Below, piece after piece: positions 2,735 through 53,494 of a DNA stretch of 64,000 bases. Made by a program: the position numbers and the translations under genes. Each line of letters begins with the position of its first letter. The stretch's first letter is position 1. The stretch comes from Parcubacteria group bacterium (lineage in GTDB: Bacteria; Patescibacteriota; Minisyncoccia; Phycocordibacterales; CALRBT01). The notes below the pieces were generated by a model that had not been told where the DNA came from, made no database searches, and saw only the letters and a list, made by a program, of their open reading frames with translations. Where the stretch lies: NCBI GenBank assembly GCA_943354475.1, contig CALRBT010000003.1, positions 1,208 to 65,207 of the forward strand, written 5' to 3'.

Positions 2735-2770
2735 AAATTGAAATTAAATATCGTGTTAGAGATGGTTAGT

Positions 2771-3880
2771 TTAGGAAGTAGAGGCTTTTCTGGCTCTTGA
2801 AATATTAAGTAAAATTCCAACCTCAGCCATAGTAAAGAGAAGAGCACTTCCACCATGACTGACGAAGAGTAGTGGCATCCCCGTTATAGGGAAAATACCG
2901 AGTGTTGAGGCTATGTTTATAAACGATTGAACAACTATCAGTATAACAATTCCGAGCGCCAGCAGTCCACCGAAAAGATCTGGGCTGGCTGCTGCGATAT
3001 GGATACCCCTAATGGCGAAAAACAGAAAAAAGAGGAGGAGTACAATGGAACCAAGAAGTCCCCATTCCTCAGCGTATACGGCAAAAATTGAATCCCCTAT
3101 TGGTTCTGGAAGGAAGTTGAACTTTTGAACACTCTGGCCAAAACCTTTACCTACTAATCCGCCTGAGCCAACTGCAATGAGTGACTGCTGGATTTGATAA
3201 CTCGCTCCAGTTGGATCACGATTTGGATCAAGGAAGGTCATCAAACGGTCCTTTAGATACGGTTTGACCATAATCAGAAGTGCTATGGTTACCAGCCCAA
3301 TTAAAAATAGTCCACCAATATGTTTCCACGGAACTCCAGAGGCGACGAGCATTGCAACCCCCGCTGCGCCAATGACCATAAGTGTCCCAACATCTGGTTG
3401 TTTGATGAGTAAGGCACCGCAAAGACCTAGAATGACGGCGAAAGGAATAATCCCCTGCTTTATATTGGTAACCTTATCTTTTACACCCGAAATCCAAGCA
3501 GCAAAAAAAACGACAAAGCCAAATTTTAAAAGTTCCGCAGGTTGAAATGTGAGTGGACCTAGGTGCAACCATCTCGTCGCTCCTCCGTGAGTAAAGCCAA
3601 GTTTTGGAATGAACACCATCGCCGTAACTACGAGCGAAAAGATAAAGATATAGAGAGCGTATTTTCTAAAGAAACGATATGGAATCCTTGAGAAAGCATA
3701 GAGAACGATAGACCCAAGCACAACGCCGATAAGAAGTTGTTTAAGTAAAACTCTTTCAAAGGTAGCTCCGGATTCTCTTGCTAGAAGTCCCATTGAAGCT
3801 GAAGCAAAGATGAAAAAACCTACCAGAACCAATATGATTACTGAAATGAGGAATATTTTGTCAAACGGCTTTGTGCGCAT
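2771..3880 (-). CDS. ftsW: SEDS-family peptidoglycan glycosyltransferase (FtsW/RodA)
   Basis: Polytopic membrane protein with FtsW/RodA-like conserved blocks, located between murG and mraY as in dcw clusters. Confidence 0.8.
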   Translation of the reverse strand: MRTKPFDKIFLISVIILVLVGFFIFASASMGLLARESGATFERVLLKQLLIGVVLGSIVLYAFSRIPYRFFRKYALYIFIFSLVVTAMVFIPKLGFTHGGATRWLHLGPLTFQPAELLKFGFVVFFAAWISGVKDKVTNIKQGIIPFAVILGLCGALLIKQPDVGTLMVIGAAGVAMLVASGVPWKHIGGLFLIGLVTIALLIMVKPYLKDRLMTFLDPNRDPTGASYQIQQSLIAVGSGGLVGKGFGQSVQKFNFLPEPIGDSIFAVYAEEWGLLGSIVLLLFFLFFAIRGIHIAAASPDLFGGLLALGIVILIVVQSFINIASTLGIFPITGMPLLFVSHGGSALLFTMAEVGILLNISRARKASTS

Positions 3881-3899
3881 GACATAATTCTAACACATT

Positions 3900-4979
3900 T
3901 TACTTCCCGATAACTGCAATAATAAGCCCAAGAAGTGCAAAAATAATTCCAACAATCCAGAAACGCATCGTTACTTTATATCCAGGCCAACCAATTGCTT
4001 GGAAGTGGTTGTGGAGTGGTGCAACGACAAACACTTTCTTACCACTTCGTAGACGTTTGGATCCAATTTGAAGAATGGCTGAGAGTGTCGTAACAACAAG
4101 AGGAAAGGCAATGAGTGGAAGAACAAGCACTCCATGTCCCCCACCGAGTGAGTCAGTCATAAAGGCAACAATGGTAAGAGCGATGGTGAGACCCATCGTC
4201 CCCGTCTCTGAAAGATAAAACCTGGCTGGGGGGATGTTAAACCAAAGAAATGCGAGCAATGACCCAGCGATGACTCCACAGAATGTGGCGAGGTCTAATT
4301 GCTGTTGGTAGAAGGCAATTCCTGCGTATGCAGAGAAAATAACAGTAAAAATACCTCCAGCAAGTCCATCGATTCCATCTATAATTCCACCTGAATAAAT
4401 GGCAATGGCAACAAGCACAAAAAATGGAATGAACAAAAACCCTAACTCAATTACTCCACCGTAGAGGAGGTTAATACTTGAGACATCTAGTTTGAAGTAA
4501 AACCAGAGCGCACAGAGTAACGAGACGAGTGCGACGATAGAGAGTCGTTTCCGCAAAGAAAGTCCTCCTGCTATATGGGTTCCACCACCACGAACAGAGT
4601 AGAAATCATCAAGTAGTCCAACGAGTGACCCAATAATCATTGCACAAAGGGGAATCCATGTTTGATTACGACTAAGAAAATCAAACTTCATGAACAGCTC
4701 TATCGGAAATATTTTTGCCAGCGAAAAGAAAAACAACGTGGTAATTAAAACACTTACCCAAACAAGTATTCCACCCATTCTCGGTGTTTTCTTTGCCTCA
4801 TCGTTGTGAAGTTTGTTTGATATTGTTGCTTCCCTACCATCAAGTGTCATTTTGACACTCTCTTTTTTCCACAATTTATATTTATACAAATAGTGGGTAA
4901 GGAGGGGTGCCAAAGCTAAACCTAGGAAAAAAGCAAAAGAGGTGGGTACAATAATTTTGACAATATCTGCGATAATCAT
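3900..4979 (-). CDS. mraY: Phospho-N-acetylmuramoyl-pentapeptide transferase
   Basis: Polytopic membrane protein with DGIDGLAGG and NxxNxxDGIDGL-type MraY motifs. Confidence 0.9.
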   Translation of the reverse strand: MIIADIVKIIVPTSFAFFLGLALAPLLTHYLYKYKLWKKESVKMTLDGREATISNKLHNDEAKKTPRMGGILVWVSVLITTLFFFSLAKIFPIELFMKFDFLSRNQTWIPLCAMIIGSLVGLLDDFYSVRGGGTHIAGGLSLRKRLSIVALVSLLCALWFYFKLDVSSINLLYGGVIELGFLFIPFFVLVAIAIYSGGIIDGIDGLAGGIFTVIFSAYAGIAFYQQQLDLATFCGVIAGSLLAFLWFNIPPARFYLSETGTMGLTIALTIVAFMTDSLGGGHGVLVLPLIAFPLVVTTLSAILQIGSKRLRSGKKVFVVAPLHNHFQAIGWPGYKVTMRFWIVGIIFALLGLIIAVIGK

Positions 4980-30409: not shown

Positions 30410-32371
30410 CTATTCGAGCACTGCTTTAATTCTCCTGATTCCTGCGGCTACCGCCTCTTCTTTTTGGATTTTAAAGTGTCCGAGTTCGTTCGTGTTGCCA
30501 ACATGTGGACCGCCACAGAATTCAAGTGAAAATGGGTGAGCAATAGGCCCTACCGAATAGACCGAGACGCGCTCTGGATACTTCGCGTTAAACTCATGTT
30601 CAGCGCCCAACTTCTCCGCTTCTTCAAGCGCCATCTCGGTGCGAACCACCTCAATCCCTGCTTTTATTTTTTCATTAACAATACCTTCAACCTGCTTCTT
30701 TTGATCTTCAGTCATCTTTGACCCATAATTGAAGTCGATGCGTAAACGCTCTTGAGTAATATTTGATCCACGCTGATGTACCTCAGGCCCGAGCACCATC
30801 TGAAGTGCCTTGAGAAGCAAATGGTGCGCGGTGTGGAGACGTGTCGTCTTCTCTGTCGTATCAGCAAGACCACCTTTGAACTTCTTTTCGGAGCCCGCGC
30901 GTGAAAGCGCACGATGGTCGTCCATTGCTACCCTAAATCCTTCTTCGTCAATCGTCATCCCCTCTTCGCCTGCAATTTCCAGTGTTAATTCAAAAGGAAA
31001 ACCGAAGGTTTGATAAAGTAACGCTACATCAGCACCACTTAGAGACTTGCCCTTTAATTTGTTAAATTCTTTGAGTCCTCGTTCGAGAGTCATGCGGAAA
31101 CGTTTTTCTTCCTGTTCAATTTCGTTAATGATGGTGTCAGATTGCGTAATCAATTCTGGGTAAGCTCCTTTGTATTTTTGGATGAAAGCCTCGGCAATAG
31201 CCCCGAGAATGTTTCTCTCATCAATTGGCTTATGCTTATGACTAATAGTGTCAGCAAATCGAACCGAGCGACGAATCAAACGCCTGAGTACATAACCTTG
31301 ATCAGTGTTTGACGGGGTTACCCCATCTGAAATGAGGAATACTGCCGCCCGCATATGATCGAGAATGACACGGAAAGCTTTGGTCTGTTTTTCGTTTGCT
31401 CCATACTTTGAACCTGACTCTTCTTCGAGAACAGCAAGTGCACTGTCGAAAAGATCTATGTGAAAGATGTCAGGATTATTGCGAGCTGCCATCTCAAGAC
31501 GCTCCAATCCTCCACCAAAATCAACATTTGGTTTTGGAAGCTTTTCAAAGCCACTGGCCGTCTTTACATATTCCATAAAGACATTGTTCCCAATCTCAAC
31601 AAAACGTCCACAGTCACAATTCACATGACAAGGTTCATCCTTCCACTGCGATTTCTCGTGGAGTTCACGTTCAATACCAAAATCCCAAAACATTTCCGTA
31701 TCTGGCCCACCAGGCTCACCCTCTGGCATATTACCCGGCACACCAACTCGCGACCACCAGTTTTTCTTTTCATTGTAATAAAAGATTCGAGCTCCCTGCA
31801 TACCATTCTCTTCAGGAAAATCAGCGATCTCTGCACCAATCCCTTTTCCAGAAAATAGCTCCTGCCACTTTTCTGCCGAGAAAGTGTCACGTGGAATTTC
31901 CAAATCATCGTTACCTCTAAAACAGGTAACGTAAAGATTATTTGGATCAAGTCCCACTTCCTTCGTCAAAAACTCAAACATCCAAGAAATCTGCTCAGCT
32001 TTGAAGTAATCACCAAATGACCAGTTGCCGAGCATCTCAAAGAATGTGGTGTGGCGATTGTCCCCCACCTCTTCAATATCCTGTGAGCGAAATGATTTCT
32101 GTGAGTCGGTGACTCTCTTTCCAAGCGGGTGGGGGGTGCCGAGAAAATACTGGAGCATTGGTTGCATCCCAGATCCGGTAAAGAGTGTCGTGGGATCATT
32201 CTCAGGAACCAGTGGTGCCGAAGGAACAATGACATGCCCCTGCTTTTCAAAAAAATCTAGATATTTCTTACGTATTTCCCCTGCTTTCATAGTAAAGACT
32301 ATTCTAGCACCTCTTTCTAATTTTTTGAAGAAAGACCCTGTGTATGATAACGTGGCTGTATCCGGCGACAC
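30410..32371 (-). CDS. alaS: Alanyl-tRNA synthetase, C-terminally truncated form (catalytic + tRNA-recognition + editing domains; no C-Ala domain)
   Basis: Class II AlaRS N-terminus (FTGSGMQPMLQYFLG), editing-domain HxxxH (HTAHHLL) and CxxxH (CGGPHV) motifs; 653 aa versus ~870 aa canonical. Confidence 0.9.
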   Translation of the reverse strand: MSPDTATLSYTGSFFKKLERGARIVFTMKAGEIRKKYLDFFEKQGHVIVPSAPLVPENDPTTLFTGSGMQPMLQYFLGTPHPLGKRVTDSQKSFRSQDIEEVGDNRHTTFFEMLGNWSFGDYFKAEQISWMFEFLTKEVGLDPNNLYVTCFRGNDDLEIPRDTFSAEKWQELFSGKGIGAEIADFPEENGMQGARIFYYNEKKNWWSRVGVPGNMPEGEPGGPDTEMFWDFGIERELHEKSQWKDEPCHVNCDCGRFVEIGNNVFMEYVKTASGFEKLPKPNVDFGGGLERLEMAARNNPDIFHIDLFDSALAVLEEESGSKYGANEKQTKAFRVILDHMRAAVFLISDGVTPSNTDQGYVLRRLIRRSVRFADTISHKHKPIDERNILGAIAEAFIQKYKGAYPELITQSDTIINEIEQEEKRFRMTLERGLKEFNKLKGKSLSGADVALLYQTFGFPFELTLEIAGEEGMTIDEEGFRVAMDDHRALSRAGSEKKFKGGLADTTEKTTRLHTAHHLLLKALQMVLGPEVHQRGSNITQERLRIDFNYGSKMTEDQKKQVEGIVNEKIKAGIEVVRTEMALEEAEKLGAEHEFNAKYPERVSVYSVGPIAHPFSLEFCGGPHVGNTNELGHFKIQKEEAVAAGIRRIKAVLE

Positions 32372-34206: not shown

Positions 34207-34671
34207 CTATACCAACTTAAATTCTTGAAGTTTTTCCTTGTGCGATGGGAGAAAATCAATGCCAGCAAAAAGTCTCCTTAAGCCATCAACGGTGAAGTAT
34301 TGTGGATTCTCTCCATCACGTCCAGGTCCCATATTAGATAGATCTGACATGAAAACATTGCAGGTAAAAAGACAAACCCAATGCCTTTGATCTTTATCCA
34401 TCAACCACTTTTCAATATAAGATACTTGTACGTGCGTCACTCTGATACGTGCTTCCTCATACAGTTCTCTAATCGCGCTTTCCTTTGGAGTTTTATCCCC
34501 TACCTCTTTATGCCCGCCTGGAAGTTTCCATTTTGAATTTTCTCCAAATTTTCTATCAATAACGAAAACGTAACCGAGTAATCTTTTTACCTCCGCCCTT
34601 GAGTAAACTCTGACAAGAATTAAAGAAGCCCAGTCTTCAGCACCGTCGAAACCAAATTCTTCAAGATACAT
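34207..34671 (-). CDS. NUDIX hydrolase
   Basis: Nudix box GGHKEVGDKTPKESAIRELYEEARI (GX5EX7REUXEEXGU). Confidence 0.8.
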   Translation of the reverse strand: MYLEEFGFDGAEDWASLILVRVYSRAEVKRLLGYVFVIDRKFGENSKWKLPGGHKEVGDKTPKESAIRELYEEARIRVTHVQVSYIEKWLMDKDQRHWVCLFTCNVFMSDLSNMGPGRDGENPQYFTVDGLRRLFAGIDFLPSHKEKLQEFKLV

Positions 34672-48322: not shown

Positions 48323-49405
48323 TTAGATGATTGAATACTTCCCTACCTTGTCTTTCTTGAAATACTTTGGGTTTTGAATGTTTACCAGAATGGTATTTGG
48401 TTTAACATATCGTTCCTTAAGCACCTTTTCGATAATCTCCTCTTTGGTCAGCGGGCCATTTTTTTTAATTACTTCTTCAACCACCTCTCGTACGATACCA
48501 CTCATATATCCCCACTCTTTGAGCGCATAGAGTCCTCGTCCAACAAGAACAAAACGTTCGTCCTTAATAAGTTCATTATGACAAGTCGCAATATGGGCCT
48601 TCTTTCCAAATGTCTCACCAATAATACGAGCAACCTCAGTAAAGTGCATCGGAGAGCCGTGTCTACGAATAGCAAGGTAGGCGAGATCACGAATTCCTTT
48701 AGCCTTTACAGAGTTTGAAGTTGCAATACCCCACTCACCGAGTGGATTACGGTCAAGTTTCTTTGAAATACGGAGCCAGCGTCTCAAAACCTCCTCATCC
48801 TTATACTTCTCTGAAACATCCTTGAGGTGATCTAGAAATAGTGCAATCATCTCCGATTCAGGAATAAGATCTTCGTCAGAAAGACTCTTATAAAGGTTAT
48901 GTAGTGCAGTATGTACTTGCACGCTTAGCTCTTCGTTGACATGCCACCTATCTTTAAAGTGCTCATCCTCTTTAGCTCGCTTAAACGCATTACCTAAAAC
49001 GAGGAAAAGATTAAGGTGATTTTCAAGTTCAGGCTTTTCCCCCAAATCCTTGAGCAAATCTTCTTCAGAAACAATGGCACCGAGCTCGTGCATTGATTTC
49101 TCAAGTGCCGCAAACATCTCTTGTTCCTTGCGAAATACTTCAGATTTTCGAATACTATCGAGCGCGTAATTTTCAATTTGTCTGACACGTTCACGAGTAA
49201 TACCATAAATCTTTCCGATACTCTCTAGTGTCATTCGTTCATGATTTTCACCCAATCCATAACGACTTGAGATAACATTTCTGGCACGATCAGCAAGCAC
49301 CCCAAGGAGGCGTTTAGTGACTAATTTTGGTCGATATTGGGTTAATGTCATAATATTGTAAATTTCTAAGTACTTATTTGTATCATTTTTATTAGCTAAC
49401 GTCAA
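48323..49405 (-). CDS. Transcription-factor-like protein: N-terminal sigma-70 region 4 (HTH) domain + C-terminal HARE-HTH-like domain; no sigma region 2
   Basis: RARNVISSRYGLGENHERMTLESIGKIYGITRERVRQIENYALDSIRK (sigma70 r4 consensus) at aa 40-90; C-terminal HFTEVARIIGETFGKK...ERFVLVGRGLYALKEWGY resembles HARE-HTH (RpoE delta N-terminal domain type). Confidence 0.6.
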   Translation of the reverse strand: MTLANKNDTNKYLEIYNIMTLTQYRPKLVTKRLLGVLADRARNVISSRYGLGENHERMTLESIGKIYGITRERVRQIENYALDSIRKSEVFRKEQEMFAALEKSMHELGAIVSEEDLLKDLGEKPELENHLNLFLVLGNAFKRAKEDEHFKDRWHVNEELSVQVHTALHNLYKSLSDEDLIPESEMIALFLDHLKDVSEKYKDEEVLRRWLRISKKLDRNPLGEWGIATSNSVKAKGIRDLAYLAIRRHGSPMHFTEVARIIGETFGKKAHIATCHNELIKDERFVLVGRGLYALKEWGYMSGIVREVVEEVIKKNGPLTKEEIIEKVLKERYVKPNTILVNIQNPKYFKKDKVGKYSII

Positions 49406-49469
49406 GTTTTTGGATAAAGCACTAATACACCCTTATTCTTAGCCAGATTTCATAAAACTCTTAAGTACC

Positions 49470-52352
49470 TTATTTACTTAAAAAGTTAATAAGTCTATCT
49501 TTTACATAAAAAACCTTGGTAAATCCTCCCTCCGGGAGCCACTTTTTTACCACCTCAAGCCCTAAAGCTGTTTCTTGAATTTCTGCCTGTGGTAGTCCTG
49601 CCTGCGCAGTAAAGGTCGCTCGAACTTTGCCATCAATCTGCACCGCGATAGTTACCTCATCTTCAGTGATGAGTTTTGGATCATATGCTGGCCAGGACTC
49701 AAGGTGTATTGATTTTTCGCTACCTAAATTTTGCCAAATCTCTTCGGTGACATGTGGAGTGAATGGGGCTAACATCATCAGAAGTGTTTTGTAAATTCCC
49801 TCCTCAATTGTTTCTTGTCGATCCAACTCATTAACCAGAATCATCATCGAACTAATAGCAGTATTGAACTTCATCTCTTCAATATCCTCCGATACTTTCT
49901 TTAATGTCTTATGAAGAAGGTTTTTTATCTTTTTATTCTCTTCCTTCCCACTAGTTCCAGCCTTTTCTTGCAACCTCCATACCTTTTCAACAAAACGTCT
50001 GACGCCCACGATACCATTACTATCCCATGCGACTGCTTGATCAAAGGGACCCATAAACATCTCATAGAGACGAACGCTATCTGCGCCAAATGGTTCGATG
50101 ACATCTGCTGGAGTGACCCCATTTCCCTTTGATTTAGAGAATTTTGATCCGTCATCGGCTAAAATAAGGCCGTGGGATGTTCGTTTAGCGTACGGCTCTG
50201 CAGTCGGCACAAGTCCTAAATCGTAAAGAAATTTATGCCAAAAACGGGAGTAGAGTAAGTGAAGTGTGGTGTGTTCCATTCCACCGTTATACCAATCAAC
50301 CGGAGTAAAGTATCCGAGCGCCTCCTTACTTGCAAATTCATTACTGTTATCAGGGTCGGCGTAACGCAAATAGTACCAACTAGAGCCCGCCCAGTTGGGC
50401 ATCGTATCTGTCTCACGTTTAGCAGGACCCTTACAAGCCGGACACGCTACATTGACCCACTCGGTGATAGCCGAGAGTGGTGACTCACCATCATCCGTTG
50501 GTGTGTAATTCTCTACATTAGGTAGCTCAACGGGCAACTCTATTTCTGGTACGGGTACGTAACCACATTTTGGACAATGAATGACAGGAATTGGCTCCCC
50601 CCAATATCGTTGACGAGAAAAAACCCAATCACGAAGTTTAAAGGTTGTCTTAATAGTACCTCCAACAAACTCGGTTATTTTATTTTTTGCTTCTTCACTT
50701 GATAATCCATCAAATTCTCCAGAATTTCCAAGATACCCGAGATCAAGATAACAATAATCTGGGTTGTCGAGGATATTGAGTAAAAAACGACCTTCAAAGA
50801 CTGAGAAAAAGTCTTTGAGCTCCTCTTTCTTTTTCCATACGAATTCGTGTTTTTCGGCCTCTACTTGATCAACTGCATCACGCTCTTCGTTTTCGAGTTC
50901 AAAGTATAAGTAACGAAACCTGGCCCAACGATTTTGTTTTTTTTGTTGATGATAGAAAAAAGTATTGACAGTCCATTTTGGGTCGTTAATAAATCGTACA
51001 TTTCTATAACCAGATTCTTCTTTAATCTCACGAGTCGCCGCTTCAACAACATCTTCTCCGTCTTCAATTCCCCCCGTAAGAAGACCTTGCATGTGGCTCG
51101 TTTTCCAAACATTACAGAGATAGGTGTCGTCTTTTGGGTTCTTTAGTACAACACAGACCGCGTCCCTTTTTACAAACTTCTCTCCTACTTTAGGAGCACC
51201 CTCTTCTTTACCTATATACACTGGTTCAATAACTCGTTTAATAGACAATCCGAACTTCTTTGCAAACTCAAAGTCACGCTCATCATGAGCGGGTACCGCC
51301 ATGATTGCACCTGTTCCGTAGTGTGCCAAAACATAATCTGCAATAAATACAGGAATTTCCTCACCATTTGCTGGGTTGATAGCCTTAAGTCCTTGAAGCT
51401 CAACACCCGTTTTTTCTTTTCCTGCGTCGGTGCGCTCAATTTCTGTTTTCTTTTTTACAGCTTGGATATATTTATTCACTTCATCGGCGTTTGTGACCCG
51501 AGACGCCAAATTTTTCACAAGCTCATGTTCAGGAGCAATCACTAAATACGTTACACCAAAGAGTGTATCTGCTCTTGTCGTAAAGACTTTAATCTTTGTT
51601 TCTTCCCCCTGCGAGGATAAGTGTTCGCTATGCTCCCTTAGATTCTCAATCTTAAATTCTATTTCCGAACCCTCTGATTTACCAATCCAATTTCTCTGTT
51701 GAATTTTGATTTTCTCCAAATAGTTTACATCGTCAAGATCTTTATCGAGTCGCTCTGCATACTTGGTAATGGCAAGCATCCACTGCTCTTTCTCTCGTTT
51801 CTCGGTAGGTCCTCCACAACGTTCACAGTGTCCATCAATCACCTCTTCATCTGCCAAACCAACCTTACAACTCAAACACCAATTAATTGGACGTTTTGCT
51901 TTATACGCTAAACCTTTTTTAAAGAATTGCAGGAATATCCATTGTGTCCATTTGTAGTATTTAGGGTCGGTTGTATTGATCTCTCGTGACCAGTCAAAAG
52001 AAAAGCCGAGGGATTTGAGTTGTTTACGAAAATTATCTGTATTTTGCTTCGTTACAATCTCTGGATGAACCCCCGTCTTTATTGCGTAATTTTCTGTCGG
52101 CAAACCAAATGCGTCCCAACCAATTGGGTAGAGTACATTGAAGCCCTCCATGCGTCGCTTACGAGCAATGATATCCATCGCCGTATTACTACGAATGTGC
52201 CCAACATGAAGTCCTGTTCCTGATGGATATGGGAATTCAATCAAGGGGTAGAATTTTTTCTTTGGTGATGAAGTTAGAGCTTTATTGGGCTCTGTCTTCT
52301 CCCAAACATCCTGCCACTTCTTTTCTATTTTCTTGTGGTCATAAGCCTTCAT
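49470..52352 (-). CDS. leuS: Leucyl-tRNA synthetase carrying an inserted NUDIX hydrolase domain (~aa 385-535)
   Basis: HVGH (HIGH), editing-domain TTRADT / AVPAHD, KFSKSKGN (KMSKS), anticodon-binding domain; between KRVIEP and NSGEFDGL...KLRDWVFSRQRYWG lies GGIEDGEDVVEAATREIKEESGY (Nudix box). Confidence 0.9.
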   Translation of the reverse strand: MKAYDHKKIEKKWQDVWEKTEPNKALTSSPKKKFYPLIEFPYPSGTGLHVGHIRSNTAMDIIARKRRMEGFNVLYPIGWDAFGLPTENYAIKTGVHPEIVTKQNTDNFRKQLKSLGFSFDWSREINTTDPKYYKWTQWIFLQFFKKGLAYKAKRPINWCLSCKVGLADEEVIDGHCERCGGPTEKREKEQWMLAITKYAERLDKDLDDVNYLEKIKIQQRNWIGKSEGSEIEFKIENLREHSEHLSSQGEETKIKVFTTRADTLFGVTYLVIAPEHELVKNLASRVTNADEVNKYIQAVKKKTEIERTDAGKEKTGVELQGLKAINPANGEEIPVFIADYVLAHYGTGAIMAVPAHDERDFEFAKKFGLSIKRVIEPVYIGKEEGAPKVGEKFVKRDAVCVVLKNPKDDTYLCNVWKTSHMQGLLTGGIEDGEDVVEAATREIKEESGYRNVRFINDPKWTVNTFFYHQQKKQNRWARFRYLYFELENEERDAVDQVEAEKHEFVWKKKEELKDFFSVFEGRFLLNILDNPDYCYLDLGYLGNSGEFDGLSSEEAKNKITEFVGGTIKTTFKLRDWVFSRQRYWGEPIPVIHCPKCGYVPVPEIELPVELPNVENYTPTDDGESPLSAITEWVNVACPACKGPAKRETDTMPNWAGSSWYYLRYADPDNSNEFASKEALGYFTPVDWYNGGMEHTTLHLLYSRFWHKFLYDLGLVPTAEPYAKRTSHGLILADDGSKFSKSKGNGVTPADVIEPFGADSVRLYEMFMGPFDQAVAWDSNGIVGVRRFVEKVWRLQEKAGTSGKEENKKIKNLLHKTLKKVSEDIEEMKFNTAISSMMILVNELDRQETIEEGIYKTLLMMLAPFTPHVTEEIWQNLGSEKSIHLESWPAYDPKLITEDEVTIAVQIDGKVRATFTAQAGLPQAEIQETALGLEVVKKWLPEGGFTKVFYVKDRLINFLSK

Positions 52353-52378
52353 ATATCCTCTTTTTTAGTTAATTGAAT

Positions 52379-52924
52379 TTATTTGAACTTCTTAATGGCT
52401 AAGAATACGAGCGCACCAAGTGCAATTGCGAGGATTCCAACCTGTAAATAATTATCGGCATAGGTCCAATAACGAATCGAAGCGATAATAAAGGAGAGTG
52501 CGCCACCAAATGAGAATGCGGTCGATACCACAACATTGGCTGAGATGAGGAATCCGACACCGAGTGAAAGTACGCCAAGGATAACGAGAACGATAAATAC
52601 ATTTCTACTATAGAGTTTAGATGCATCTTCATAATCCTTTTGGCAAGTAAACTGTGTGTTACAGTATCCAGCCTGAACTTGAGCTCCATCCATTATTGGC
52701 TTACTTGGATAAAAGTTTGCATCCCACTGTCCACCTTTAGCAAGACATGCCTCCTTTGTGGTGATTGGTTCAAGTATCTGTTCTTGTTTACAATAATTAT
52801 TATATTCAGGAGATTTATAAACGAGAGAGATTGAAAAATTAAAAAACAAATTGAGAACGATAACAATGCTGATAATGAGCGCCCACTTGAGTAACCCTGA
52901 AGGTAGGTTGTTTGTATTTTCCAT
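52379..52924 (-). CDS. Hypothetical membrane protein with Cys-containing extracytoplasmic loop (181 aa)
   Basis: N-terminal TM, ~100-aa loop with 5 Cys, C-terminal TM pair. Confidence 0.45.
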   Translation of the reverse strand: MENTNNLPSGLLKWALIISIVIVLNLFFNFSISLVYKSPEYNNYCKQEQILEPITTKEACLAKGGQWDANFYPSKPIMDGAQVQAGYCNTQFTCQKDYEDASKLYSRNVFIVLVILGVLSLGVGFLISANVVVSTAFSFGGALSFIIASIRYWTYADNYLQVGILAIALGALVFLAIKKFK

Positions 52925-53050: not shown

Positions 53051-53494
53051 TTATCTTATAATTTGATACTTAAACCATCGCTCCTGAAAATTAATTGCTT
53101 GTTTAATTTGATCGTCAGTCATAAGAACGTTCTCGGGTGTAACAACAAGCTTATCATCATCGTCATCTAATCTATGAATAATTGCTCGTACAACACCCCT
53201 GGCTTTTTGAAGCACTTGGTGAGTTCCAAGATAATACGCATCCAAATCTTCTCCATCAGGTGCCCTTACTCCTTCAAGATAACCGTAGTTTACTTCATAA
53301 ACGAAGCCAAATTTAGGATGTTTACTTCCTAACGGTCTATCAAACACTATTTCAACTTCTTTTCCAAGAAATTTTTTCGCAGTCAGGAATGATTTCGAAT
53401 TATTGTCACTTGGCATATTTTGTTTAAATCTTGAACTCCACAACACCTCCGCTTTCTGTAACTTGACAAATGTTGTAAGTCGTAACAAGAGCAC
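53051..53494 (-). CDS. ppa: Inorganic pyrophosphatase-like protein (short family-I-like form; likely start at internal ATG 53414-53416)
   Basis: NYGYL, DGEDLDAYYLG and RLDDDDDKLVVTP align to family I PPase Y55, D65/D67/D70 and D97/D102/K104 blocks, but protein only ~121 aa from MPSDNN. Confidence 0.5.
   Translation of the reverse strand: MLLLRLTTFVKLQKAEVLWSSRFKQNMPSDNNSKSFLTAKKFLGKEVEIVFDRPLGSKHPKFGFVYEVNYGYLEGVRAPDGEDLDAYYLGTHQVLQKARGVVRAIIHRLDDDDDKLVVTPENVLMTDDQIKQAINFQERWFKYQIIR

Follow-up and report, generated by a model that had tools for sequence, protein, structure and literature searches.

A Nudix hydrolase domain nested within the editing domain of leucyl-tRNA synthetase in Patescibacteria

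Results

The host leucyl-tRNA synthetase

The stretch of DNA analyzed here (the window) comprises 64,000 nucleotides from a Parcubacteria group bacterium of the Patescibacteriota (assembly GCA_943354475.1, contig CALRBT010000003.1, positions 1,208 to 65,207). Its leuS gene occupies 49470..52352 on the reverse strand, the strand of all leuS features given below, and is a single open reading frame (ORF) for a bacterial-type leucyl-tRNA synthetase (LeuRS) of 960 amino acids, with a Nudix domain set into its editing domain. An earlier reading made from the sequence alone (the sequence-only reading) had called this protein longer than usual, and alignment with Thermus thermophilus LeuRS bore this out, giving a net gain of about 145 amino acids. 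The NCBIfam model TIGR00396 (leuS_bact, 843 positions) scored 975.6 bits against a cut-off of 548.4 and matched in two stretches, with the break falling at the insert. A Pfam scan of the 960-residue protein returned tRNA-synt_1, tRNA-synt_1_2, Anticodon_1, and NUDIX (PF00293). The domain scan that the sequence-only reading had proposed thus recovered both tRNA-synt_1 and a nested NUDIX match (E = 1.9e-12). The model for the LeuRS editing domain, PF13603 (tRNA-synt_1_2), matched residues 220 to 378 over model positions 1 to 143 of 185 (E = 1.4e-61).

The signatures of the synthetic site are found at residues 49 to 52 (HIGH signature, here HVGH; 52197..52208) and residues 737 to 741 (KMSKS signature, here KFSKS; 50130..50144). 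The Thr-rich editing motif TTRADT lies at residues 258 to 263 (51564..51581), and alignment placed a second editing-site motif, AHDERD, at residues 355 to 360 (51273..51290), with D360 opposite D347 of T. thermophilus LeuRS. We take the TTRADT residues to act in post-transfer editing, and T. thermophilus D347 (E. coli D345) to be the essential editing aspartate. Across 96 LeuRS homologues there was no change at H49, G51, or H52 of the HIGH signature; at K737, S739, K740, or S741 of the KMSKS signature; at T258, T259, R260, D262, or T263 of the Thr-rich motif; or at H356, D357, R359, or D360 of AHDERD. With its synthetic and editing motifs all there, the host LeuRS looks fully functional.

Position of the inserted module

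We set the junctions of the insert by aligning residues 230 to 600 of the window LeuRS to the sequences of solved LeuRS structures. The match to the T. thermophilus enzyme stops at E376 (T. thermophilus residue 363) and restarts at residue 533 (T. thermophilus residue 375). The intervening module of 156 residues (residues 377 to 532; 50757..51224, as defined by alignment to LeuRS chains in the PDB) stands in place of an 11-residue loop in Thermus (residues 364 to 374) and of about 19 residues in Neisseria. It consists of a 16-residue leader, the Nudix domain (residues 395 to 512 by the PF00293 match; 50817..51170), and C-terminal helices, and its insertion point is 17 residues past the editing-site residue D360. 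Upstream of it lie the N-terminal three quarters of the CP1 editing domain (residues 220 to 376; 51225..51695), which match PF13603 and align with T. thermophilus residues 236 to 363. Downstream is the C-terminal quarter of CP1 (residues 533 to 575; 50628..50756), which aligns with T. thermophilus residues 375 to 446 and holds the NSGEFDGL block and the return strand KLRDW.

When residues 377 to 532 were deleted in silico, the remaining sequence gave a contiguous PF13603 match over positions 1 to 183 of 185, in which residues 533 to 575 became model positions from about 144 to 183. Because excision restores an unbroken match, the Nudix domain is nested within CP1. The sequence-only reading had located the domain at 50750-51200, which corresponds to residues 385 to 535 and covers the Nudix domain. 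In its view the insert followed the editing domain and preceded the NSGEF block; the insert does lie upstream of that block, but it does not lie past the end of the editing domain, instead splitting CP1 at about position 143 of the 185 in PF13603.

Three other accounts of the extra segment were considered and rejected. An intein or other self-excising insertion was set aside, since the whole-protein Pfam scan gave no Hint or intein family and the insert comprises one Nudix fold joined by short linkers. An assembly chimera does not fit an unbroken ORF whose junctions are common to hundreds of independent assemblies. As for recent horizontal transfer of the insert, its G+C content (0.36 to 0.40) is not anomalous beside values of 0.34 to 0.49 over 49000-52899 and 0.415 for the whole window.

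Nudix box, conservation, and subfamily

The NUDIX match (E = 1.9e-12), whose 47.8 bits compare with a gathering score of 21.1, spanned model positions 2 to 118 of 134 and, judged by profile, is far beyond chance. The Nudix box is a 23-residue motif of the form G-x5-E-x7-R-E-U-x-E-E-x-G-U (PMC4734340). A search of the LeuRS with this strict pattern gave one match, GGIEDGEDVVEAATREIKEESGY, at residues 427 to 449 (51006..51074), with E442, E445, and E446 as the metal-binding glutamates. In 120 LeuRS homologues, G427, G428, E445, E446, and G448 were present in every sequence and E442 in all but one. The strict box was found in 101 of the 120, and the others differed only at the E433/R441 pair or at the residue between that pair and the glutamates. 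E433 and R441 covaried, being Glu and Arg in 103 sequences and Gln with Met, Ala, Ile, or Gln in 13. We read these two positions as a structural pair, varying together around unchanging metal ligands.

Outside the box, invariant or nearly invariant residues were R396, W416, K417, K471, N474, R475, E498, H502, and W506. They define a subfamily signature made up of R396, W416-K417, FYHxxKxxNR at residues 466 to 475, and E498..H502..W506. The basic residues among them (R396, K417, K471, R475, and H502) would suit a polyphosphate chain. Mean pairwise identity over the same 120 homologues was 0.79 for the Rossmann half, 0.66 for CP1, 0.46 for the Nudix domain, 0.41 for the C-terminal domain of LeuRS, and 0.24 to 0.27 for the two linkers.

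Curated models for Nudix subfamilies did not claim the domain. The RNA pyrophosphohydrolase (RppH) models NF001936 (30.8 bits against 118) and NF001938 (28.2 against 116) stayed below their cut-offs, and sequence matches of the insert to Ap4A hydrolase in the PDB had an E value of 0.0026 at best. For Nudix hydrolases acting on ApnA there is reportedly a rule, said to come from work by Dunn and colleagues in 1999, of an aromatic Tyr about 16 to 18 residues past the box. The insert has Y467 18 residues after Y449, in a column that holds Tyr in 82 and Phe in 31 of the 120 sequences, next to a preceding column with Phe in 110, which makes this rule ambiguous here. Other subfamilies are known by a Pro about 15 to 16 residues past the box (ADP-ribose), by SQPWPFPxS past the box (NADH), or by an upstream NuCoA motif (CoA). 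The post-box sequence, RNVRFINDPKWTVNTFFYH, has T464 and F465 at +15 and +16 and no SQPWPFP, and there is no LLTxR..FPGG upstream. The insert thus lacks the motifs of the ADP-ribose, NADH, and CoA subfamilies. By its profile scores, the insert is a member of the Nudix superfamily that lies outside every curated Nudix subfamily.

Predicted structure

An AlphaFold2 model of the full-length LeuRS, built from a 96-sequence alignment, had a mean predicted local distance difference test score (pLDDT) of 88.4 and a predicted template modeling score (pTM) of 0.79. It superposed on the LeuRS structures of T. thermophilus, E. coli, and Neisseria gonorrhoeae with Foldseek E values around 1e-80 (1.5e-80) and TM scores of about 0.8 normalized to the target. 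The window protein shares with the solved bacterial enzymes that carry CP1 (T. thermophilus 1H3N, 2BYT, and 2BTE; E. coli 4AQ7 and 4ARC; N. gonorrhoeae 7NU*) their fold and domain order, 31 to 38% sequence identity, and the HIGH, KMSKS, and Thr-rich motifs and editing aspartate. No solved LeuRS among those compared has a domain at the insertion site.

In the full-length model the insert and its linkers had pLDDT values of 85 to 94, with about 89 to 94 for the insert itself; the Nudix domain modeled alone had 90.1. The domain is predicted as an alpha/beta/alpha sandwich with the Nudix box on a loop-helix, so the structural check suggested by the sequence-only reading gave a high-confidence, independent Nudix fold. 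We are all but certain that residues 377 to 532 contain a complete Nudix domain, as that reading had supposed, given that profile match, box, predicted fold, and family-wide conservation agree.

Its nearest structural neighbors formed a flat ranking in which several substrate classes were intermixed: an uncharacterized Enterococcus faecalis Nudix protein (15.2), the Ap6A hydrolase Ndx1 (14.7), NudI (14.2), the ApnA hydrolase Rv2985 (14.0), and RppH (13.8). No substrate can therefore be read from the fold. Set against free-standing Nudix hydrolases (T. thermophilus Ndx1 1VC8, Mycobacterium tuberculosis Rv2985 9CXX, E. coli NudI 3OGA, RppH 6D13, and the Ap4A hydrolases 1KT9, 1JKN, and 5CFI), with which it shares 13 to 23% identity, the LeuRS domain has its own signature residues and is embedded in another enzyme.

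Distribution in Patescibacteria

A first, word-indexed search with the insert alone gave 3 matches and an impression of extreme rarity, which a full-length search and an exhaustive HMMER search overturned. In the full-length search, 119 of the 120 nearest LeuRS clusters (54 to 71% identical) carried PF00293, an answer to the question raised by the sequence-only reading of how widespread the insertion is. The named sources of the 120 clusters were Nomurabacteria, Taylorbacteria, Paceibacterota, Parcubacteria, and "Patescibacteria group." We also used two conserved insert peptides as queries against GTDB genomes, one for each species, a procedure that yields a lower bound, and found that at least 402 species-representative genomes encode a relative. 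The two halves of CP1 flank the Nudix domain at 79 of the 80 best loci, the exception being a stand-alone gene for 158 amino acids in a Paceibacterota genome (locus L081). Junctions were mostly constant, with about 46 to 55 nucleotides separating the Nudix match from the CP1 match upstream of it and, in most loci, 16 nucleotides on the downstream side. The insert is thus an old, fixed, vertically inherited trait of LeuRS in Patescibacteria of the Parcubacteria/Paceibacteria type.

The architecture sits in public databases unremarked. The entries KKR43508.1 and UniRef100_A0A0G0QTG5, which fall in one cluster, are annotated merely as leucine--tRNA ligase, and such proteins currently bear only that name or "class I tRNA ligase family protein."

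Relatives in prolyl-tRNA synthetase and as stand-alone genes

An exhaustive HMMER search with the insert alone against 1.84 billion cluster representatives (E ≤ 1e-3) gave 316 matches, so few that they mark a narrow subfamily and not generic Nudix proteins. We surveyed the hosts of the 150 best-scoring representatives. These were LeuRS (with one to three copies), class II prolyl-tRNA synthetase (ProRS) of some DPANN archaea, or a stand-alone gene, and a few proteins carried unassigned extensions in place of LeuRS or ProRS.

Five ProRS clusters (P0258 and P0281-P0284) carry the subfamily. A profile built from LeuRS inserts only found the ProRS inserts with hmmsearch E values of 2.5e-53 to 2.6e-38, and the subfamily signature was common to both, although in some ProRS inserts Lys or Asn replaces the box Arg. 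P0258 is a 643-residue archaeal-type ProRS with the Nudix domain between the anticodon-binding and C-terminal domains, and its gene is a genuine, undivided ORF on a contig of 8.5 kb. Genes for Nudix-bearing archaeal-type ProRS lie at 2906-4837 of locus L084 and 2762-4693 of locus L088. The nearest other ProRS proteins, of 480 to 490 residues and named Nanoarchaeota or Woesearchaeota, had no Nudix insert. The subfamily has been captured independently by LeuRS in bacteria of the candidate phyla radiation (CPR) and by ProRS in DPANN archaea.

About 28 of the 150 best representatives are stand-alone genes for proteins of about 160 amino acids (about 160 to 180 for those beside synthetase genes), and their N-terminal leader resembles the LeuRS linker. 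One of them (P0147, on a contig from JGI 3300071358) lies 2 nucleotides upstream of a leuS gene for a 951-residue, Nudix-bearing LeuRS. The gene order on that contig is that of the window (YchF, leuS, a Sigma70_r4/HARE-HTH protein) and continues with a DUF8128 protein; the window ORF at the DUF8128 position had no Pfam match. Another stand-alone member (P0181; 1533-2084 of L088) is one gene upstream of a Nudix-bearing proS.

In the window, two reverse-strand ORFs between ychF and leuS, at 53051-53494 (147 amino acids) and 52379-52924 (181 amino acids), had no Pfam match, and by eye the latter looks both hydrophobic and membrane-like. A syntenic relative has a DUF5671 protein and a stand-alone Nudix gene between ychF and leuS. 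None of the genes around leuS in the window (those for YchF, the Sigma70_r4/HARE-HTH protein, and a YceG-family protein, and unassigned ORFs) bears on the Nudix domain.

The separate stand-alone Nudix gene that the sequence-only reading had pointed out at 34207-34671 is there (reverse strand, 154 amino acids; Pfam E = 6.6e-10). Its product keeps RELYEE, with the left half and the last glycine of the box noncanonical. The hidden Markov model of the LeuRS-insert subfamily gave no match to it even at E ≤ 10, and by this measure it belongs to a different Nudix family from the insert.

Other insertions in related synthetases

In some relatives, LeuRS has a second or third Nudix copy just before CP1. 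These copies are nearest to the CP1-loop copies (58 to 67% identity), which points to intragenic duplication. Other modules found in relatives were a Ser_hydrolase/alpha-beta hydrolase, DUF559 with MTES_1575, PDDEXK_3, and HAD_2. The extra modules follow positions equivalent to residues of about 207, 235 to 248, 546, 596, and 634 of the window protein, and occur in P0010, P0040, P0043, P0057, P0083, P0102, and P0125-P0139. In related Patescibacteria, LeuRS forms a hot spot at which domains have been inserted in frame, and the nuclease inserts (DUF559 and PD-(D/E)XK) raise the question of a mobile-element origin for some of them.

Some relatives also carry unassigned inserted segments of about 200 amino acids. 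In the window protein, residues 243 to 248 (51609..51626), in the loop HSEHLSSQGEE before CP1, are the sole stretch with a pLDDT below 50, and this loop coincides with the busiest site of extra domains in relatives. The leuS of one relative, at locus L001 (4337-7838), encodes both the Nudix insert and a phosphatase-like HAD_2 domain (E = 6.3e-14), the latter at the position corresponding to residues of about 634 to 646 in the window protein; the gene was called as several frameshifted pieces, which we took to be assembly errors, and locus L002 looks similar. Ham1/ITPase (PF01725), listed for some long relatives in precomputed annotations, was not reproduced at E ≤ 1e-5 in P0040 or P0083, and we did not rely on it.

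Other genes in the window

The window encodes a second synthetase, alanyl-tRNA synthetase (30410-32371, reverse strand), of 653 amino acids with tRNA-synt_2c and tRNA_SAD and apparently without a C-terminal region; typical bacterial alanyl-tRNA synthetases have about 875 amino acids. Beyond leuS, reverse-strand genes at 55335-57479, 58466-59725, and 60432-63911 form a run of large predicted surface-type proteins with cohesin-like, dockerin-like, and bacterial Ig domains, and include a 1,159-residue protein with a Peptidase_S74 (endosialidase chaperone) domain.

Discussion

Aminoacyl-tRNA synthetases (aaRSs) as a group are known to gain extra domains. One NCBIfam model, NF040702, describes an isoleucyl-tRNA synthetase with an N-acetyltransferase domain, and metazoan aaRSs also carry appended domains. 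The LeuRS described here differs from such enzymes in that the added domain is a Nudix domain, is nested in the editing domain and not terminal, and is restricted to ultra-small-celled lineages. The sequence-only reading had called the architecture nonstandard. It is unusual among characterized aaRSs, and no solved LeuRS has the insert, but within its own clade it is the norm. The closest parallel is the DPANN ProRS, in which the same Nudix subfamily is again in frame within an aaRS with a stand-alone paralogue nearby. There, however, the host is a class II, archaeal-type enzyme, the insertion point is another one, five clusters were seen, and the closest relatives have no insert. Full-text literature searches turned up no account of a LeuRS or ProRS that contains a Nudix domain; coverage of subscription journals was thin, and this absence is unproven. 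What is unusual is a probably catalytic domain nested in an editing domain, fixed in hundreds of species, and convergent in CPR bacteria and DPANN archaea.

Because the metal-binding glutamates hardly vary in a domain that otherwise drifts, the module is probably an active, Mg2+-dependent pyrophosphohydrolase. Whether it is functionally tied to aaRS chemistry is a closer call, on which we lean slightly toward a tie. The association takes the form of insertion in frame and, twice, of neighboring genes. LeuRS and ProRS differ in class, and aminoacyl-adenylate/ATP chemistry is all that they have in common, so that a nucleotide compound made at aaRS active sites is the most likely substrate. Synthetases are classical producers of Ap3-5N, whose levels are controlled by Nudix Ap4A hydrolases (PMC7705103, PMC4734340), and on that ground we tentatively put forward an Ap4N-type compound as a candidate. 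An enzyme-bound aminoacyl-adenylate would react with ATP or another nucleoside triphosphate (NTP) to give Ap4A, Ap3A, Ap4N, or p4A, and the tethered Nudix domain would cleave such dinucleoside polyphosphates or adenylylated by-products near the site of their formation. Clearance of this kind may matter in tiny cells short of other house-cleaning enzymes. An active Nudix domain tied to aaRS chemistry and clearing Ap4A-type by-products is our best overall explanation, one that we judge about evenly poised between right and wrong. A stronger version, in which the subfamily is a dedicated aaRS partner, recruited twice, that destroys Ap4A or Ap4N at the source or couples its level to synthetase activity, is possible but rather unlikely.

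Several points weigh against by-product clearance. LeuRS is only a weak producer of Ap4A, and no curated Nudix subfamily model was reached, the best being RppH. Five other stand-alone members had no aaRS gene in their visible flanks, and the contig of a sixth was too short. Unrelated modules occupy other loops of sister LeuRS proteins, so that LeuRS may simply tolerate passengers. The module could then be an active house-cleaning enzyme with no coupling to leucylation, for example one that sanitizes noncanonical NTPs, and LeuRS an essential, constitutively expressed carrier with permissive surface loops in genome-reduced Patescibacteria. The assorted domains and extra Nudix copies in other LeuRS loops fit such an arrangement, as do the stand-alone members, which show that the domain works without a host, and the presence of the nucleoside triphosphatase NudI among the best sequence and structure matches. 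We nevertheless regard it as unlikely, because the other modules occur only here and there, whereas 119 of the 120 nearest homologues and at least 400 species have the Nudix domain in the CP1 loop, mostly with the same junction spacing, because an unrelated archaeal aaRS independently captured this same narrow subfamily, and because stand-alone copies lie directly beside leuS and proS.

The remaining alternatives concern what else a Nudix fold might do at this site. An RppH- or NudC-like enzyme might strip a 5' triphosphate, or an NAD or Np4A cap, from tRNA(Leu) or its precursor near CP1, which touches the acceptor end in the editing conformation (PDB 2BYT and 4ARC). The best NCBIfam Nudix matches are indeed RNA pyrophosphohydrolase models (E = 2.4e-7 and 1e-6), and the matches in the PDB include NudC and RppH. 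These scores are far under the family cut-offs, the NudC motif SQPWPFPxS is absent from the LeuRS sequence, mature tRNAs bear a 5' monophosphate, and the ProRS module, between the anticodon-binding and C-terminal domains, is expected to lie away from the acceptor end, so we consider RNA-end processing improbable. A noncatalytic role, with the fold acting as a ligand sensor or structural element that modulates CP1 movement or partner binding in the manner of NrtR, the MutY C-terminal domain, or mitoribosomal mL46, is suggested by the presence of mL46, NrtR, AraR, and MutY among the structural neighbors and by the minority of family members with an altered left half of the box. To our knowledge, noncatalytic Nudix domains have lost the metal-binding glutamates, and here those three residues and the box glycines are kept in 119 or 120 of the 120 homologues, which makes such a role very improbable. 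Scarcely to be expected, finally, is additional proofreading, in which the Nudix domain would hydrolyze misactivated Nva-AMP, Ile-AMP, or Met-AMP in pre-transfer editing. The location inside the editing domain, close past the editing aspartate, invites the idea, and LeuRS and ProRS both misactivate near-cognate amino acids. The sequence-only reading had named aminoacyl-adenylates as possible substrates, alongside Ap4A and other dinucleotides, of which those of the Ap4A type are plausible. Aminoacyl-adenylates are chemically unlikely, as they are mixed acyl-phosphate anhydrides rather than a nucleoside diphosphate linked to another moiety and so are atypical of Nudix enzymes; the hydrolases of aminoacyl-adenylates that we know of are HIT proteins and the synthetases themselves. 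The canonical post-transfer editing site of CP1 is fully conserved, so that no replacement editing activity is called for, and stand-alone members of the subfamily exist.

Few enzymes have been studied as closely as the aminoacyl-tRNA synthetases, and it is rare to find a new catalytic domain nested in one. In the present case, a very large bacterial radiation has an essential enzyme whose proofreading domain encloses an intact hydrolase site, and the archaea that captured the same subfamily in ProRS have a lifestyle similar to that of Patescibacteria. If the Nudix module is a passenger, essential proteins would serve as carriers for accessory enzymes in genome-reduced cells, with several LeuRS loops as insertion hot spots. 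If it acts on aaRS by-products, these organisms would offer a natural system in which to test the need for Ap4A clearance at the source. Should the subfamily be a dedicated aaRS partner, it would be a built-in sanitation or signaling switch of ultra-small symbiotic cells and would bear on the choice between Ap4A as a signal and Ap4A as a damage metabolite.

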